Positions 1 through 6,843 of a stretch of DNA of 64,000 nucleotides are shown one piece after another. Source of the DNA: Patescibacteria group bacterium (GTDB taxonomy: Bacteria > Patescibacteriota > Microgenomatia > CAYGWK01); the NCBI GenBank assembly GCA_049322615.1, contig JBMORX010000010.1:89416-153415 (forward strand), given 5' to 3'. Within the stretch, counting starts at the first letter, position 1, and every line of letters starts with the position of its first letter. The translations under genes were made by a program, and so were the position numbers. The notes beneath the pieces are model-generated. The model did no database searches and was not told the origin of the DNA. It worked only from the letters and a program-made list of their open reading frames with translations.

Positions 1-3000
1 AGTACCTCCTGTACCAAAGGCTAAACTTCCAGAAGATAGGATTTCGTGCCTGCCAACAGCGACAGTCTCAATTTCGAAGTCCAAGGTTTCAGCACCCAGA
101 CTATTCTGTAGCCGCAAGGGATATTTGGAAGGACTTCCAGCCCCAGGGTCATCAACATTCAGCTTAAAACTTCCCGGCCCCGTCGTCCCGATGCCGACGT
201 TGCCTACCGTATTTACCGTCAAGGCCGGTGTCCAGGCATTAACTCCTGATTTGTAGTCTAGAGTTAAAAGTCCAGCATTTCTTGGTCTGACTGCTCCTCC
301 CGAAGCAAGATATAAATTCCCAGAAACCGAGGCATCTCCGGAGACATCAAGTTTAGCTAAAGGAGAAGTTGTCCCAATTCCAATCTGACTGCCGGTTTCG
401 TAGATTATCGAGTCGGTGAGGGTCGTTGAACCTGACCATTTCGGAATGTAATTTTGCGTTCCGGTTCCCGAAAGAGAGGAGGAAGTGCCCATGACAATCC
501 AGGAAGTTCCATTACAGTAGTACATCTTATCATCTGTGCCGTCATAGTATTGTTTGCCTTTATTTGAGGCGTTACAGGTCCCGGCATAGGCGGGAGCATT
601 GGGTCCAAAACCTAAAGTCCCTGAAATGGTGGCGTTACCGGCAATATCTAGTTTTTGGCTTGGAGAGGTCGTCCCGATGCCGACGTTGCCACTTTTGTCT
701 ACGACGCTTAACACGCCCCCATCGCTATTCTGCCATTGGGTAAGGTCTCCTGTCTGACCTGAAGTTCCTTTAATAATTAATGGTATAGATGCGGCACCAA
801 CTGCACTATCGGCGGTAATTATTGCTGCGTTAGGAAGAAAAGCCTTTCTGCTGCTGTAGGTTAAAACAGGATTTCCATCACTCACTGAGAGAAATCCACT
901 AGATGCATAAATTCCACCACCATTAAAGTAGCCAGTGCCCGCAACTTCCAATTTGTAGGTAGGCCCCGTCGTCCCGATGCCGATATTACCCGCCGAAGTG
1001 ACCACGAAGGCGGGCGTTGCCGTGCCTCCGCCAACGGAATTGCCAATCTGGAGAGAACCATTGTCATACAAATTAATCAAATGAGCCGTGCCACTGCCTC
1101 TGAATGTTAGATTTCCCGAGGCGGAGGCACTCCCGGCAATATCCAAGGTGGCCAATGGTGAAGTTGTTCCAATCCCAATCTGGGAACCGGTTTCGTAAAG
1201 AATCGAATCGGTTAAAGTGCTAGAGGTTGACCATTTGGGAATGTAGTTTTGTGTTCCCGAACCCGAGACCCCACTTGCTCCTGAAGCGACTGCCTTCCAA
1301 GAAGAACCATTACAATAGTAGTATTCGTCGGCAGCATTATCATAGTACATCTTTCCTTCAGCCGCAGCATTACAGGTGCCGGCATAAGCCTGAACTTGGG
1401 GACCTAAAGATAAAGTTCCGGAAATAGTGGCGTCTTCTGCCAAAGTCAGGTCATTGAGAATATAGGTATTATGAGCGACAATCCCATTAGCAACAAAATT
1501 ATGGGTTCCCTCAACCTCAATATCATAGACCTGCTCCTCGCCAACATACTCAATCGAGGCAATTTTCGCCCATTTGACTCGGCTGCCAATTCCTCCACCT
1601 CGGAGGAGCCCCTTCGGGTCACCATCCGAGGTGTCTGCTGTGGCAATTTCCATTCCCGGACGAAGATAGATGACCTTTGTCCACTCGGCGTTGACAAAAG
1701 AATTTTCTTCTGATAGATTATTCTTAATGAGAGGGGTTGATCCAATTTGGCTGTCAATAGTATCAGACCTATTTGTTAACTTGTCTGCCGGTTGGTTTGG
1801 AGTGGTACTTATCGTTCCTAATTTTGCTAAAGAGAAGGGAAGAAGAAAATTGTTGGTCTTGACAACCGATGTATTACTTGGTATATTTTCCTTAGGTGTG
1901 GCATTTGTTTTAAGAAAATTATTATGAGCTCCAAAGACAAAATTGATATTCTCGATGTTAACGCCAGAGCCGCTATTGCTTTTGGTTTGGCCGTAATCGC
2001 TTTGCTCTTGCTTTATATTGCTTTCCTTAAGTAAATCTTGCCAATTTCTCACTAAATATGGGTGATTTCCGGTTGTCCTTATTTGTCTTCCGTCTTCAGT
2101 CGTCAGTCTATAGACTGGTTTGACCCCCATATCCAACAATCCCTTGATTTTGGCCGGCTCAATTTTGCCAGTTTTTTCGTTTAAAGAAAGAACAAGTTCT
2201 CCACCTTTAATATCCTTGATCTGGACGAAGGAGATATTAGGTGATTTTTCTTTTTTGTTTTCGCTCTTAGTATCATAGTCTCTTAGTATCTTAGTATCTT
2301 CTGTTGCCACGATTGGTAAAAGACTGTCGCCAGTAACACACTGTCCCTCAACATGGAGTTTTTGGGCAGGACTCGTCGTCCCGATGCCGACGTTGCCGGT
2401 ATTGATCCAGGAATTGTTACCAGATGTACCAGTGAGTTTTACTAAAGCCGAGGAGGTAGCCGTTGCTCCAAGCAAAACATCATCAGTGATATTGGTGGGG
2501 GAGAGTGCTTGGGCATTTCTTTGCCAATAGCCCGAGGTTCCGGAAGAAGGAGAGTAGATGTTATTGGCATACAAAGCATTCCAATACAAAGATGAAGAAC
2601 CAAGGTTTCTTGTTCCTGTTGCTTCGGGAGTAATATCTCCAGCTACCTGGAGAGCTGATCCTGGATTAGTTAAGCCTATTCCCACATTACCAGAGCTGTT
2701 AACAAACAATCCTGTCGTCCCTGTGGCACCCCGTAGCCAGGCAGTTCCAGCAATCTCTAACTTAGCGCCTGGCGAAGTGGTGCCGATGCCGACGTTGCCG
2801 CTGCTTAATACTAAACTGTCAGACGTGGCGCTGGAATTGATTCTGAATGGATAAGCTCCAGACTGTTGGTTTTTGAAAGCCAGTCCATAGACAGGATTAT
2901 CTGTAGAAATAATCCTGAAATCTACATTAGGGTCTCTCATCAATTCTAAATAGTTATCAGTGCCGTTGCCATTGACTCTTAGGTTGCCTGTTATATCTAG

Positions 3001-6000
3001 TTTTTCACTTGGTGCCGTCGTCCCAATTCCCACATTCCCTAAATTATTAACCGTCAGAGCCGGTGTCCAGGCATTGACTCCGGATTTGTAGTCAAGAGTT
3101 AAAAGTCCAGCATTTCTTGGTCTGACTGCTCCTCCCGAAGCAAGATACAGATTTCCAGAAACTGAAGCATCTCCAGAAACATCAAGTTTAGCTAAAGGCG
3201 AGGTGGTCCCAATTCCAATCTGTCCGCCTGTTTCATAAATTATGGAATCGGTTAAAGATGAAGAAGTACTCCATTTGGGAAGGTAGTTTTGTGTTCCCGA
3301 ACCAGAAACCCCACTTGCTCCTGAAGCCACTGCCTTCCAAGAAGAACCATCACAATAGTAGTATTCATCTTGGGCATTGTCATAGTACATTTTCCCTTCA
3401 GAGGAAGCATCACAGGTTCCCGCATAGGCCTGAACTTGGGGTCCTAGAGCTAAAGTCCCAGAAATAGTGGCGTCTTCTGCCAAAGTCAGGTCATTGGCAA
3501 TATAGGTATTGTGAGCCACAATCCCGTTGGCAACAAAGTTGGCGGTATTGGCAATCTGAAGATCATAGACATGTTTTTTACCAGCAGGCTTGATAGAGAC
3601 AATTTTCTCCCACTTGACCCCGCTATATTCCTTAGCATTCGCCTTTTTAATACTATTCGTATACGGCTCATGCTGCGGATTTACGGGGTCTGCGCCCTGT
3701 ACCGAGAAGGGAACTTGGTGGTGGGGCTTGACATCACCTAATTTACTTGTGGTAGAATGATTATCGATGGGAGAGTTAAAAGGAGAACCCAAAGTATATT
3801 CGGAATTTTTCACTAACGGAGCAGTCGCTTGGCTTTCAGCTGGGGTAATTGCGCCCTTATTTGCCAGAACATTAGGAATGAAGGAGGTAATTGCTTCTTT
3901 GATTTCTATTTCTTCTTGTATATTGTTTTTAAAATTAGCCTCTGATTTTAGCAAGGAGGGTCGATGATTGCTGATAATATTTTGATTGCCTACAGTATTG
4001 GAGTGATTATGAGTAGTATTATAATTATTTATGCCTACTTTCGCTTGAAAAAGTGAGGAATTATGAGTATTGAGACTATTGTTTATATCTTGGCGATTAT
4101 TTTCGGGGTGATTGCTTTCTATATTGCCTTCTTCAAGGTGCGTTAAGTTGGCAACCGCTATTTCTTCCCTTTCTTTTAAGAAAATAACTTTCTTCCACCC
4201 ATCAGGCGTTAGGTACGGGTGATTTCCGGTGGTTTCGATCCTTTTGCCTGATTCGGTTTTTAACTCATAAACTTCCTGAATGCCTTTGTCCAGAGTTTTT
4301 TCCACTTTCTGCCAGGCAAATTCTCCAGTATTTTCGTTTAAGGACAAAACTCTGTCTCCAGGTTTAACATCCTTTATTTGTTTATTTGACATTTGACATT
4401 TGACATTTGACATTTGACATTGTGCTACAGGCACTAAGCTATCCTCGGCCACACATTCTCCTGCTACATGGAGTTTTTTGGAAGGCCCCGTCGTCCCGAT
4501 GCCGACGTTGCCGGTATTGATCCAGGAATTGTTACCAGATGTACCAGTGAGTTTTACTAAAGCCGAGGAGGTAGCCGTTGCTCCAAGCAAAACATCATCA
4601 GTGATATTGGTGGGGGAGAGTGCTTGGGCATTTCTTTGCCAATAGCCCGAGGTTCCGGAAGAAGGAGAGTAGATGTTATTGGCATACAAAGCATTCCAAT
4701 ACAAAGATGAAGAACCCAGGTTTCTTGTCCCCGTTGCCTCGGGAGTAATATCTCCAGCTACCTGTAATTTTGAACCAGGACTTGTCGTCCCGATGCCGAC
4801 GTTGCCGCTAATATACGTGTCCCCGTTACCTAAGATTGAAAGTCCTTTCCCAGTTGTATAATCTGAAAGTGTTACTGCATTATGAGTTGCATCACCTTCA
4901 CCCTTAATAATCCATTCTCCATAAGCAGCAGGCCCGATGAAATAATTATCCGAATCAGAGTGGCGAAAATAATCTACATATAGACTGCTCCAGTGACTTG
5001 TAGACAGACCCAAATGTCGGTTGGCGCCAGAAGGAAGGATATGACCTGCTGCTTGGATACTACCCAAAACATCCAGCTTTTGACCCGGATTCGTCGTCCC
5101 GATGCCGACATAACCTTGTTCGGTCATTACCATTCCCGTTGTCCAGGCATCGGCTCCAGATTTATAGGCAAGTTGGAGTGGTCCGTAGGCAGGTCTAATG
5201 GTTTGTCCTTGACCAATGGTTAGGGTTCCAGACATTGAAGCATTGCCGGTAGTTCCTTCAAAATAGAGTTTGGCAGAAGAAGTGGCGGTTCCCCCAATGG
5301 CGACTGATTCGTAAGTGTTGTTGGGATAAATAACTCCACTGGTCTTTGTCCAATATCCTGAAGTTCCACTCGAGCCGCCATAGATATTATTGACATAAAG
5401 ATTATTCCAGTAAAGTGAAGTAGAACCTAAATCGTAAGTGTTTCCAGAGGAGGGAATGAGATTTGAGGCGACGTTGGCGTTTAAAGTTAAGTTTCCGGCT
5501 AAGGTTAAGGCGTTAAGGTTACCAGTGCCAGAGGAATTGATATAATAGGTGGTTCCGCCGCCAACGCTGATTCCCGCTGATGAGACAATATAAGACGCTG
5601 ATTGTTCGCCGATATCCAAAGAAACACCGCCAGCGCCGGTAATATCGCCGCCGGAAACGGTAATATCACCAGTAAAATAAGAACCAGTGGTATTGGCCCG
5701 AAGAATACCGGCGGCTGAGGCATTGCCGCTATAGTCAACTGTAAACTTAGGAGAAGGCGTCGAGCCGGATTCAAGTTTTAAAAGATTTAAATTGGTATTA
5801 TTGTTGGCTACCGAGCCATATAAAAGAGTATTTGCTTCTCGACCGCCTGATGAGCCGAGATTAGCATCGGTGGCGCTTATCACATTTCCCGTCCCGCCTG
5901 ACAAAGTTAGGTTTAGCACTCCGGAGCCATCGGGTGCTATGGCAATATTGCCGTTGGTGCCGGTATCGGTCACAATCGAGAGCGCCTGACCTCTAATTTG

Positions 6001-6843
6001 AAAAGTGCCTGAAGTTGACCAAATCTTGGGCGAGGCAGAAGCGATAATTAAATTACCTGCCGGATTAATGGCCGGGACAGTTCGGACCGTCGCCCCCATG
6101 GTCGCCGTCGGCTCGGCATTGGTAGCTGAAGCCAGAGGAAATCCTTGCAACGTTTCCGCGTTTAAGGCATAACCGACAGTGGCGATTTGAATTCTTGGAG
6201 TGGCTTCGGAGTCTGAACCAACGGTTATCCCAAGCCAGACCGAGGCGTTTTCCGAAAAAACCGAAGAGGCAATCGCCCCTCCGCAATCAGAGCCCAAAAT
6301 GGTGTTAAAAATTCCATCCTCATCGGGGTCAATTGAGCAGGTGCCCGAATCCCAAAGAGTATTCCCGCCAGAGGAGGCATCATAAAGTCTAAATCTCATG
6401 TTGGTGGCGGTCGTAATCGGAGTATTTGCCGAGTCAGTCAGCCTGCCCTGAAAAGAAAGATAGCGGTTGGGGACAACCGGGGCGGCCGGATAGGCAAGTT
6501 TTTCCGGAGCCTTTTGGATAAACTGCTGGTAAATGCCAAAGCCTAAAGCCGCCAGAAAGATGATTAAGATTAGAAAGTTTAAATAAGTGAAGTAGGGAAG
6601 AGCACGGTAGGCGCGAAGCGGAAGCTTCGCTTTAGAAATTAGTAATTTGTAATTAGTAATTAGAGAAGCCTTTTGGATAAAAGGATTCTCTTTAAGGTAT
6701 CCTTCTCTCACTGCCCAGGAAAAGAACTTTCGCAGCGAGGATTCTTTTCTTTTAAGGCTTTTGGCAGAGGCCCCCCGCATTGCCAGGTATTGGCGGAAAG
6801 TTTTTAGGGTATTTTTATCTATTTTTTGCCAAAAATTAGTCAT
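1..6843 (-). CDS. Giant surface protein (>2,280 aa), partial: the C-terminus lies beyond the window start. Reading from its N-terminus, the domains are a phage-integrase N-terminal SAM-like (core-binding) domain, a transmembrane helix, and a long extracellular region of tail-fibre-like GNVGIGTTSP repeats. It carries two Hint/intein insertions.
   Basis: Start ATG at 6843..6841 overlaps the TGA of the upstream gene (ATGA). I translated the minus strand from 6843 to about 6430 (MTNFWQKIDKNTLKTFRQYLAMRGASAKSLKRKESSLRKFFSWAVREGYLKENPF..., then the TM helix YFTYLNFLILIIFLAALGFGIY), and 4500..660 and 420..1 continuously without stops. The recurring GGCAACGTCGGCATCGGGACGAC (GNVGIGTT) codons at 204, 690, 2397, 4512 and 5115 are all in the same frame relative to 6843. 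The ORF track misses it, probably because no stop lies inside the window. Confidence 0.78.
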   Translation of the reverse strand, partial: MTNFWQKIDKNTLKTFRQYLAMRGASAKSLKRKESSLRKFFSWAVREGYLKENPFIQKASLITNYKLLISKAKLPLRAYRALPYFTYLNFLILIIFLAALGFGIYQQFIQKAPEKLAYPAAPVVPNRYLSFQGRLTDSANTPITTATNMRFRLYDASSGGNTLWDSGTCSIDPDEDGIFNTILGSDCGGAIASSVFSENASVWLGITVGSDSEATPRIQIATVGYALNAETLQGFPLASATNAEPTATMGATVRTVPAINPAGNLIIASASPKIWSTSGTFQIRGQALSIVTDTGTNGNIAIAPDGSGVLNLTLSGGTGNVISATDANLGSSGGREANTLLYGSVANNNTNLNLLKLESGSTPSPKFTVDYSGNASAAGILRANTTGSYFTGDITVSGGDITGAGGVSLDIGEQSASYIVSSAGISVGGGTTYYINSSGTGNLNALTLAGNLTLNANVASNLIPSSGNTYDLGSTSLYWNNLYVNNIYGGSSGTSGYWTKTSGVIYPNNTYESVAIGGTATSSAKLYFEGTTGNASMSGTLTIGQGQTIRPAYGPLQLAYKSGADAWTTGMVMTEQGYVGIGTTNPGQKLDVLGSIQAAGHILPSGANRHLGLSTSHWSSLYVDYFRHSDSDNYFIGPAAYGEWIIKGEGDATHNAVTLSDYTTGKGLSILGNGDTYISGNVGIGTTSPGSKLQVAGDITPEATGTRNLGSSSLYWNALYANNIYSPSSGTSGYWQRNAQALSPTNITDDVLLGATATSSALVKLTGTSGNNSWINTGNVGIGTTGPSKKLHVAGECVAEDSLVPVAQCQMSNVKCQMSNKQIKDVKPGDRVLSLNENTGEFAWQKVEKTLDKGIQEVYELKTESGKRIETTGNHPYLTPDGWKKVIFLKEREEIAVANLTHLEEGNIESNHPENNRQDINNSLNTHNSSLFQAKVGINNYNTTHNHSNTVGNQNIISNHRPSLLKSEANFKNNIQEEIEIKEAITSFIPNVLANKGAITPAESQATAPLVKNSEYTLGSPFNSPIDNHSTTSKLGDVKPHHQVPFSVQGADPVNPQHEPYTNSIKKANAKEYSGVKWEKIVSIKPAGKKHVYDLQIANTANFVANGIVAHNTYIANDLTLAEDATISGTLALGPQVQAYAGTCDASSEGKMYYDNAQDEYYYCDGSSWKAVASGASGVSGSGTQNYLPKWSTSSSLTDSIIYETGGQIGIGTTSPLAKLDVSGDASVSGNLYLASGGAVRPRNAGLLTLDYKSGVNAWTPALTVNNLGNVGIGTTAPSEKLDITGNLRVNGNGTDNYLELMRDPNVDFRIISTDNPVYGLAFKNQQSGAYPFRINSSATSDSLVLSSGNVGIGTTSPGAKLEIAGTAWLRGATGTTGLFVNSSGNVGIGLTNPGSALQVAGDITPEATGTRNLGSSSLYWNALYANNIYSPSSGTSGYWQRNAQALSPTNITDDVLLGATATSSALVKLTGTSGNNSWINTGNVGIGTTSPAQKLHVEGQCVTGDSLLPIVATEDTKILRDYDTKSENKKEKSPNISFVQIKDIKGGELVLSLNEKTGKIEPAKIKGLLDMGVKPVYRLTTEDGRQIRTTGNHPYLVRNWQDLLKESNIKQEQSDYGQTKSNSGSGVNIENINFVFGAHNNFLKTNATPKENIPSNTSVVKTNNFLLPFSLAKLGTISTTPNQPADKLTNRSDTIDSQIGSTPLIKNNLSEENSFVNAEWTKVIYLRPGMEIATADTSDGDPKGLLRGGGIGSRVKWAKIASIEYVGEEQVYDIEVEGTHNFVANGIVAHNTYILNDLTLAEDATISGTLSLGPQVQAYAGTCNAAAEGKMYYDNAADEYYYCNGSSWKAVASGASGVSGSGTQNYIPKWSTSSTLTDSILYETGSQIGIGTTSPLATLDIAGSASASGNLTFRGSGTAHLINLYDNGSLQIGNSVGGGTATPAFVVTSAGNIGIGTTGPTYKLEVAGTGYFNGGGIYASSGFLSVSDGNPVLTYSSRKAFLPNAAIITADSAVGAASIPLIIKGTSGQTGDLTQWQNSDGGVLSVVDKSGNVGIGTTSPSQKLDIAGNATISGTLGFGPNAPAYAGTCNASNKGKQYYDGTDDKMYYCNGTSWIVMGTSSSLSGTGTQNYIPKWSGSTTLTDSIIYETGSQIGIGTTSPLAKLDVSGDASVSGNLYLASGGAVRPRNAGLLTLDYKSGVNAWTPALTVNTVGNVGIGTTGPGSFKLNVDDPGAGSPSKYPLRLQNSLGAETLDFEIETVAVGRHEILSSGSLAFGTGGT
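1468..2340 (-). other. Intein / Hint-domain insertion 1 (291 aa) within the giant protein. It runs from Cys1 (codon 2340..2338) to the terminal Asn of VAHN (codon 1470..1468), with Thr at +1.
   Basis: Translation reads ...NTGNVGIGTTSPAQKLHVEGQ|CVTGDSLLPIVATEDTKILRD...TTGNHPYLV...VYDIEVEGTHNFVANGIVAHN|TYILNDLTLAEDATISGTL. Textbook intein blocks are present: A (C-x-x-x-D-S-L), B (TTGNHPY) and F/G (NFVANGIVAHN), followed by T. The central linker has no LAGLIDADG or HNH motif. Confidence 0.75.
3508..4455 (-). other. Intein / Hint-domain insertion 2 (316 aa), at the homologous site of the duplicated module. It runs from Cys1 (codon 4455..4453) to Asn (codon 3510..3508), with Thr at +1.
   Basis: Translation reads ...GIGTTGPSKKLHVAGE|CVAEDSLVPVAQCQMSNVKCQMSNVKCQMSNKQ...TTGNHPYLT...HVYDLQIANTANFVANGIVAHN|TYIANDLTLAEDATISGTL. 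The central region is N/S/H-rich and low-complexity, with no endonuclease motifs. Confidence 0.75.
4387..4421. repeat. Perfect 5x TGACATT heptanucleotide tandem repeat inside intein 2 of the giant gene. It encodes the QMSNVKC repeats.
   Basis: Sequence at 4387-4421 is tgacatt x5. Seven is not a multiple of three, so a +/-1 unit change shifts the reading frame. Confidence 0.9.

Follow-up and report, generated by a model that had tools for sequence, protein, structure and literature searches.

The DNA analysed here, a stretch of 64,000 nucleotides from a Patescibacteria group bacterium (assembly GCA_049322615.1, contig JBMORX010000010.1, positions 89,416 to 153,415 of the forward strand; hereafter the window), carries at its left end the 5′ part of a gene for a giant repeat protein, the host, which is interrupted by two elements that are probably inteins and are referred to below as intein 1 and intein 2. 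Both lie on the minus strand within a single open reading frame (ORF) that extends from 6873 to 1, is free of stops over 6.8 kb and exits the window at its left edge; the likely start methionine is at 6843, and its ATG overlaps the stop of the preceding ORF. An initial annotation of this DNA had proposed two intein or Hint insertions at homologous sites of a repeated surface-type module, and profile models, predicted fold and alignment all agree with that proposal; the coordinates, the lengths of 316 and 291 residues and the junction sequences that it gave are present exactly as described. The main features are the following:

1 to 6843, minus strand: first 2281 codons of the host gene; the N-termini of homologous proteins at the genomic loci L012 and L015 support the Met start.
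3508 to 4455, minus strand: intein 1, 316 residues, lineage A (see below); PF14890 76.5 bits, AlphaFold2 (AF2) core with a predicted local distance difference test score (pLDDT) >93, Foldseek TM-score 0.89 to 1mi8.
1468 to 2340, minus strand: intein 2, 291 residues, lineage B; PF14890 80.5 bits, AF2 core pLDDT >90, Foldseek TM-score 0.88 to 4o1r.
3505 to 3507, minus strand: codon for the +1 Thr that follows intein 1 (C-extein nucleophile).
1465 to 1467, minus strand: +1 Thr codon after intein 2.
4456 to 4503, minus strand: GIGTTGPSKKLHVAGE, the copy of the host repeat motif that runs up to the N-splice junction of intein 1.
2341 to 2388, minus strand: GIGTTSPAQKLHVEGQ, the copy of the host repeat motif that runs up to the N-splice junction of intein 2.
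610 to 681, minus strand: paralogous junction without an intein, GIGTTSPSQKLDIAGN/ATISGTLG, with the same Cys-pair module after it (here and below, a slash in a sequence marks a splice junction or its equivalent).

The motif GIGTT.P..KLHV.G. precedes both inteins, each of which begins with Cys, ends with His-Asn and is followed by Thr-Tyr-Ile. The boundaries of intein 1 are KLHVAGE/CVAEDS...NFVANGIVAHN/, after which comes the C-extein TYIANDLTLAEDATISGTL (TYIANDLTLAED); those of intein 2 are KLHVEGQ/CVTGDS...NFVANGIVAHN/, with the C-extein TYILNDLTLAEDATISGTL (TYILNDLTLAED). When the two extein modules are aligned, both insertions fall in exactly one shared column, as the initial annotation had anticipated, and 11 copies of the GIGTT motif in the part of the host visible in the window are devoid of an intein. 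No further intein was found in any of the six frames of the 64-kb window. The GC content of the inteins is 40–41%, vs. 46–49% in the exteins, but GC at third codon positions is similar (38–39 vs. 38–44), so that base composition gives no clear sign of recent transfer from a foreign source.

The remainder of the host, i.e., residues 2282–5631 or 3350 codons past the left window edge, is known from the database protein P0198 (5631 residues), which was recovered by an exhaustive profile search and which matches the ORF of the window without a difference over its first 2281 residues. The full host contains five inteins, at residues 797–1112, 1502–1792, 2624–2912, 3044–3348 and 4170–4452, the last three of which lie past the left edge of the window; together they amount to 1484 residues (26% of the precursor) and occupy five of the 30 GIGTT motifs. 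It is scarcely credible that this arrangement is an assembly artefact in which a repeated 228-nt tract, described below, joined two strain variants into a false tandem. In the Logan short-read assembly of this sample (SRR32167786) the gene does break off after 688 residues, near the start of the repeated tract, but the second repeat copy is connected through unique sequence with the C-extein of intein 1, leaving the linear order as the only consistent one, P0198 is an independent record that shares the 2281-residue prefix and runs on beyond it, and many independent assemblies contain multi-intein ORFs.

Both elements exceed the curated cut-offs of the three intein hidden Markov models (HMMs) against which they were checked, namely PF14890 Intein_splicing (cut-off 35.8 bits; scores above), TIGR01445 (29.0 bits for intein 1 and 32.9 for intein 2; cut-off 24.5) and TIGR01443 (26.5 and 39.3 bits; cut-off 15.6). 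Blocks A, B and F/G and the +1 Thr, which the initial annotation had recognised, are all present, with block B reading TTGNHPYL and with the block-F Asp (VYD) and the terminal HN found in both elements; what had been overlooked is that in block F of intein 1 (VYDLQIANTANF) the His of THNF is changed to Ala (TANF). The corresponding block F/G segment of intein 2 is VYDIEVEGTHNF. The closest solved sequences are the Npu and Ssp DnaB mini-inteins (for intein 2 the NpuDnaB intein, E 4.9e-21, phmmer against the PDB), and a Foldseek comparison of AF2 models built with family alignments likewise ranks DnaB inteins at the top, 1mi8 (Ssp) for intein 1 and 4o1r (Npu) for intein 2. Across 64 aligned family members, Cys1, the block-B Thr and His, the block-F Asp and the terminal His-Asn are invariant, and Thr occupies the +1 position in 62 of the 62 complete inteins from genome loci, in both window inteins and at 62 of 63 database junctions; the genome-locus counts, here and below, rest on 80 loci out of the 442 genomic stretches that encode a relative (GTDB, one genome per species). 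Because the curated HMMs are passed, the fold is DnaB-like, the catalytic residues are invariant, the insertion column is shared and the frame is intact, we consider it likely that both elements are canonical class-1 mini-inteins with a DnaB-type HINT core and not bacterial intein-like (BIL) domains.

The invariance of the chemistry residues across 64 relatives at ~40% identity further argues for continued selection on activity, and it weighs against the view that these are dead relics, i.e., unreactive former inteins that the mature fibre tolerates as inserted globular domains with flexible loops. Such a fate is unlikely: both elements lack a nuclease, roughly half of each is taken up by a long low-complexity linker, the block-F His of intein 1 has become Ala, and a fibre built of repeats might tolerate insertions, yet every residue directly involved in the chemistry is kept in both, and the cores are predicted with pLDDT >90.

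The resemblance to the DnaB class-1 mini-inteins (Npu 4o1r, Ssp 1mi8) extends to Cys1, the block-B TxxH, the segment ..HNFVAN.I..HN and a HINT core of ~140–150 residues. DnaB inteins reside, however, in a replicative helicase, whereas those of the window are found in a giant and apparently extracellular repeat protein and use a +1 Thr; the family also differs in its linkers of 100–160 residues, predicted to be disordered and located at two insertion points, and in the presence of up to five copies per polypeptide. BIL domains, for their part, have in common with the window family a HINT fold that resides in variable, often secreted, non-housekeeping bacterial proteins. According to PMC7765530, BILs of type A are unable to ligate their flanks and those of type B are devoid of the C-terminal motif, and the title of one work cited there names BIL domains without a C′-flanking nucleophile. 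It is very unlikely that the window elements act in this way, by cleavage at one or both ends without ligation, cutting up the precursor or generating variability. Their non-enzymatic, repeat-rich and probably extracellular host is the niche described for BILs, intein 1 has no block-F His, and the PT-HINT and Hint models match weakly, under their cut-offs. Nevertheless, both elements pass intein-specific models, the solved BIL structures rank far under the DnaB inteins (2lwy is only at rank 35 of the Foldseek listing), and membership among BILs was rejected on the conservation of both the +1 nucleophile and the C-terminal His-Asn, which is needed only for ligation. As to a location in hypervariable regions, typical of BILs, the picture is mixed: the host is a variable repeat protein, yet the insertion point is its most conserved motif and not a hypervariable segment. 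The BIL situation evoked by the initial annotation is apt as regards the type of host, but not as regards the inteins, which are canonical and sit in a conserved motif rather than in a hypervariable stretch.

Two other HINT families were considered and rejected. Intein 1 reaches 25.0 bits with PT-HINT (PF07591; cut-off 27.7) and intein 2 gives no match, and fibre repeats, not a toxin, lie downstream; the Hedgehog Hint model (PF01079) matches intein 1 only, with 24.8 bits against a cut-off of 29.7. PT-HINT domains of polymorphic toxins are comparable in being HINT domains within very large secreted proteins, and 27 of the 64 family members match that model at E<=0.001, but they precede and release a C-terminal toxin, whereas the window domain has fibre repeats on both sides and keeps the residues needed for ligation.

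The two inteins of the window are far more divergent than the extein sequence around them, which includes a pair of perfectly repeated tracts:

4489 to 4716, minus strand: N-extein tract upstream of intein 1, DNA 100% identical to 2374–2601.
2374 to 2601, minus strand: N-extein tract upstream of intein 2, DNA 100% identical to 4489–4716.

Core identity between inteins 1 and 2 is 37%, with a family median of 41% (core columns of the 64-member alignment), and when the relatives of intein 2 are ranked, intein 1 comes only 59th of 63. At the protein level the two share 46% identity in the N part, 61% in the C part and 20% in the internal linkers, which the initial annotation had rightly called diverged and which interrupt the fold at different points: the linker of intein 1 follows the W.KV strand, that of intein 2 precedes it. 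At the DNA level they are ~54% identical, and identity at third codon positions (38%) is near random. Intein 2 is 63% identical to an intein at L002 and 59% identical, linker included, to an intein from WWE3; the nearest relatives of intein 1 (47–50%) are CVA(E/W)-starting inteins of the Shapirobacteria loci L012 and L020 and of L019, the host at L020 being the closest homologue of the window's host. Lineage A is thereby found again in the nearest host homologues, those of L020 and L012. In contrast, the extein flanks of the two inteins are 95% and 89% identical. Upstream, nine differences in the 33 nt next to the junction are followed by 228 nt of perfect identity, i.e., the conversion tract ends 33 nt before the junction; downstream there are 46 differences per 300 nt.

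Since the flanks are far more alike than the inteins, the exteins would have been homogenised after the inteins diverged, and the window pair is, as judged from these comparisons, a case of two old lineages at equivalent sites whose exteins were later homogenised by recombination, a process that would still be going on in the surrounding modules. A recent tandem duplication of one module with its intein is highly improbable as the origin of this pair. It would accord with the flank identities and with the identical insertion point, and inteins 2 and 4 of the same protein do look that way, but DNA of a single age cannot be 100% identical over 228 nt of extein and only ~54% identical in the adjoining intein, the linkers are at different positions of the fold, and intein 2 has nearer relatives in other genomes (63% identity, vs. 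37% with intein 1). Among the five inteins of the host, lineage A comprises inteins 1 and 3, both without the block-F His, and lineage B comprises inteins 2, 4 and 5, in the order A-B-A-B-B. The cores of inteins 2 and 4 are 96% and 93% identical and their C-flanks 94%, with unrelated linkers and differing N-flanks, a pattern that speaks for a real duplication or conversion of an intein together with its C-module. The choice put forward in the initial annotation, duplication with the intein or homing between paralogous sites, is thus too simple for the window pair, with its 37% identity in the cores vs. 95% and 89% in the flanks, but finds its place elsewhere, duplication in inteins 2 and 4 and movement in some of the relatives described below.

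The linkers that interrupt the HINT cores are as follows:

3637 to 4113, minus strand: intein 1 linker, ~159 residues, rich in Asn/Ser/His, after the W.KV strand; pLDDT <50 at residues 115–273.
1708 to 1995, minus strand: intein 2 linker, about 96–113 residues, between block B and the W.KV strand; pLDDT <50 at residues 116–211.

Both are predicted to be disordered. Homing-endonuclease motifs had been reported absent, and indeed Pfam detects none of the homing-endonuclease families (LAGLIDADG, HNH) in either window intein or in 64 relatives. The linker of intein 1 gave no Pfam match, and nothing similar to it turned up among the relatives. That of intein 2 is 55% identical to that of the WWE3 protein P0001, the cores being 63–67% identical, and is recognisable at L003 and L004 too, L003 representing a different host site; its conserved segment reads NIENINF.F..HNN.LK....KLGTI.T.P..PADKLTN. 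That this linker could be a decayed NYN nuclease was rejected (hhalign probability 0.1%).

In relatives, additional domains are nested between the splicing halves. The Pfam domain NYN (PIN-like nuclease) occurs there in 6 of 64 genomic members (74–86 bits, cut-off 24.2) and in database relatives including P0022, P0025, P0032, P0034 and P0067, which have the same GIGTT junction; its acidic residues are invariant and its position is the usual slot of homing endonucleases. These features make nested NYN a candidate homing nuclease of a new kind. Another nested domain of ~200 residues (LFRFE.DQS.RIEEL...IDIEYPGYE...IGKKSPAH.AAYGV), found in P0040, P0058, P0077 and the first intein of L047, matches nothing in Pfam or among PDB sequences. 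Neither of these two domains is present in the window inteins, which, as they carry no detectable nuclease domain, are probably no longer mobile and inherited with the gene. In a subtype of the family (L025, L037, L060 and L070; L033, L036, L056, L068, L078 and L079) a variable stretch is inserted between block F (HNFVAGH...) and the closing FGGI.AHN/T, so that the HINT core has yet a third insertion point; for five members the terminal HN was not found within 90 residues.

A protein search with intein 2 as query retrieved 254 proteins at E<=1e-5. Nearly all are from Patescibacteria, DPANN archaea, Omnitrophota and Elusimicrobiota, with some from a small number of other groups, and most are on short contigs, as expected for repeats; their junction logo is GTT.P.QKLHVEGQ/C...AHN/TYISGNVGIGTT.P. 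Word-indexed searching gave no match longer than ~1.7 times the query, so that giant proteins came from the exhaustive search only. Among the genome loci, 49 of 80 are, by their titles, counted as lineages of the Candidate Phyla Radiation (CPR). The 62 complete inteins lie in ORFs without stops that reach at least 6963 residues and have one to three inteins each, and such in-frame hosts are seen in dozens of independent assemblies. About 45 of these 62 inteins have the GIGTT...KLHV junction; a few other sites recur, such as ...LLTVNNTGQ/C and ...KDLTVDGQ/C. The top 136 new matches of the exhaustive search comprise 59 proteins with one intein, 23 with two and four with three, while the window's protein has five. 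Intein-free homologues often share KLHV.G, which is then followed by variable sequence; the intein thus directly follows the most conserved element of the host repeat. Judging from these junctions, which recur in hundreds of giant ORFs of CPR, DPANN, Omnitrophota and Elusimicrobia, the home of the clade is the motif G[IV]GTT.P..KLHVEGQ/T in giant surface proteins. A shared DNA homing site was rejected as the reason for this conservation, since third codon positions are unconstrained over 25 junctions, which indicates conservation at the protein level. A phage origin or vehicle was likewise rejected: a viral scan found 373 relatives, and the 80 viral loci that were kept have classical hosts with terminase-, helicase- and polymerase-like junctions, just one of these 80, L082, having the GIGTT junction.

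Several inteins in one gene are also known from haloarchaeal MCM, which has four insertion sites (PMC10643990). There, however, the sites are distinct and each has its own endonuclease-bearing intein, whereas the window's host is a structural protein in which one repeated motif is targeted and none of the five inteins has a known endonuclease. Two patterns are seen among multi-intein relatives. In the proteins of L043 and L029 the flanks are more alike than the inteins; at L035, on the other hand, inteins 1 and 3 are 81% identical vs. 40% and 28% for their flanks, and the same holds for L039 and L070. Inteins more alike than their flanks fit the signature expected of movement between motif copies, in some relatives at least. 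At L012 (10001–12358), inteins of lineages A and B are parted by a single 23-residue extein, TYISGNVGIGTTSPLQKLHVEGQ, and similar exteins of 23–29 residues separate inteins in P0009 and P0105.

The host itself has an unusual N-terminus, in which two features precede the repeats:

6676 to 6828, minus strand: SAM-like unit (phage-integrase N-terminal type) at the N-terminus of the host; PF13102 28.4 bits, PF02899 27.1 bits, cut-off 22.3 for both.
6532 to 6600, minus strand: predicted transmembrane helix LPYFTYLNFLILIIFLAALGFGI, preceded by a K/R-rich stretch; the only N-terminal segment >1.8 in a hydropathy scan.

The predicted signal-anchor corresponds to host residues 82–104 and would adopt an N-in/C-out topology, with the SAM-like unit in the cytoplasm and the rest of the host outside the cell. 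Beyond the helix the protein consists of Gly/Thr/Ser-rich repeats with the recurring motif GNVGIGTT.P..KL.V.G and with extein cysteines in pairs, 18–20 residues apart. Pfam found no domains in the exteins beyond the SAM-like unit, including the C-terminal 1179 residues; intein-free homologues and the intein-bearing protein of L016 end in a Peptidase_S74 tail-fibre chaperone domain. Because of the single transmembrane helix, the paired cysteines and the Peptidase_S74 domain of homologues, the best reading is that the host is a membrane-anchored extracellular fibre of Patescibacteria (CPR). Transfer RNA (tRNA) genes are scattered through the window, as expected for a cellular genome.

The same architecture recurs in many giant hosts (L012, L015, L023, L027, L031, L035, L039, L043, L070 and others), which start with a small cytoplasmic helix-turn-helix (MerR/excisionase-like) or SAM-like domain followed by one transmembrane helix; an N-terminus of nucleic-acid-binding type joined to such a helix is a recurrent and odd architecture for surface fibres. 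The protein of L016 (2371–5127; Brennerbacteria) is a complete host of 919 residues that has both an intein and a C-terminal Peptidase_S74, i.e., two unrelated self-processing modules. The Peptidase_S74 chaperone of tail fibres and endosialidases is thus comparable to the inteins as a self-processing module in the same host family, but its fold and chemistry are unrelated, it is C-terminal, and it is cleaved off instead of spliced out.

The most likely mechanism at each of the five sites is standard class-1 splicing, which would proceed by an N-S acyl shift at Cys1, aided by the block-B Thr-x-x-His, trans-esterification onto the +1 Thr, cyclisation of the terminal Asn, aided by the penultimate His and the block-F Asp, and a final O-N shift. 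Ligation would join ...KLHVAGE to TYIANDL... at intein 1 and ...KLHVEGQ to TYILNDL... at intein 2, restoring a continuous repeat in both instances; the predicted ligated junction peptides are LHVAGETYIANDLTLAEDATISGTLALGPQVQAYAGTCDASSEGK and LHVEGQTYILNDLTLAEDATISGTLSLGPQVQAYAGTCNAAAEGK, and splicing at all five sites would yield a mature fibre of 4147 residues. Both the splicing and the place where it occurs are predicted here from conserved residues and topology. With co-translational export via the N-terminal signal-anchor, the inteins would probably emerge outside the membrane, and splicing would then take place there.

Several observations weigh against this scheme and against the underlying identification of active inteins. 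A location outside the cytoplasm, as the topology suggests, is unusual for natural inteins, and we know of no natural precedent for splicing there; among the residues that usually serve as +1 nucleophile, Thr is the weakest. The block-F His, conserved in at least 90% of the family, is missing from inteins 1 and 3, and with Ala in its place the C-terminal step of intein 1 may be slow or impaired. The insertion is not clean, because intein-bearing copies of the module have 12 extra C-extein residues (TYI.NDLTLAED) when compared with intein-free copies (KLDIAGN/ATISGTL). Finally, the conservation of the intein 2 linker, unexpected for junk sequence, hints at an extra function.

Inteins 2 and 4 could also react with one another, given their near-identical halves (96% and 93%), floppy linkers and identical junctions (KLHVEGQ/.../TYILNDLTLAED). 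The N-half of one would then pair with the C-half of the other and excise the ~1250 residues of extein between them, giving fibres of varied length and module content by a protein-level alternative splicing, possibly outside the cell. We regard such cross-splicing as quite unlikely; if it did occur, the inteins would be more than passengers, and the A-B-A-B-B order would reflect selection for, or against, cross-talk. As a separate observation on intein 1, its residues 12–25 (window 4381–4422, minus strand) contain a small internal tandem duplication (QCQMSNVK / CQMSNK), and a redox effect on splicing is conceivable for the extra Cys13 and Cys20 near the catalytic Cys1.

The chemistry and the fold of these inteins are already known, while the class of host, the use of a repeated motif as target, the number of copies per protein, the CPR/DPANN home and the nested NYN domain appear to be new. 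The open-access literature yielded no description of inteins in giant or surface proteins of CPR, DPANN or Omnitrophota, nor of NYN-containing inteins, though an earlier one may exist elsewhere, and preprints on giant genes do not mention inteins. Bacterial inteins are found for the most part in proteins of replication and repair (61.5%) and of nucleotide metabolism (21.7%) (PMC4760082), and models of intein persistence are built on this pattern, from which the surface-fibre clade departs. Its hosts are mostly ultra-small symbiotic lineages (CPR, DPANN), together with Omnitrophota and Elusimicrobia. The clade raises the questions of how an intein survives in a non-essential, fast-evolving and repeated target, whether natural protein splicing can take place after export, whether nested NYN constitutes a new class of homing nuclease, and to what extent related inteins of one chain cross-react. 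For protein engineering, it is a source of many small Thr+1 inteins, possibly mutually orthogonal.

Two observations concern other parts of the window. Upstream of the host gene, on the minus strand, are an ORF of 163 residues of SAM-like type (7986 to 7495) and an ORF of 216 residues (7490 to 6840) that is predicted to form a four-helix bundle (weak 23S_rRNA_IVP match) and whose stop overlaps the ATG of the giant gene. The 163-residue ORF and the N-terminus of the giant ORF are together collinear to one continuous ORF at L031, and the 216-residue ORF between them looks, from this comparison, like an insertion that split the gene. At 47912–47987, also on the minus strand, is a tRNA with an encoded CCA end and an anticodon loop of 8 nt, CUCUUAAA (Rfam tRNA, 54.7 bits), for which ARAGORN reports the four-base anticodon ctta.

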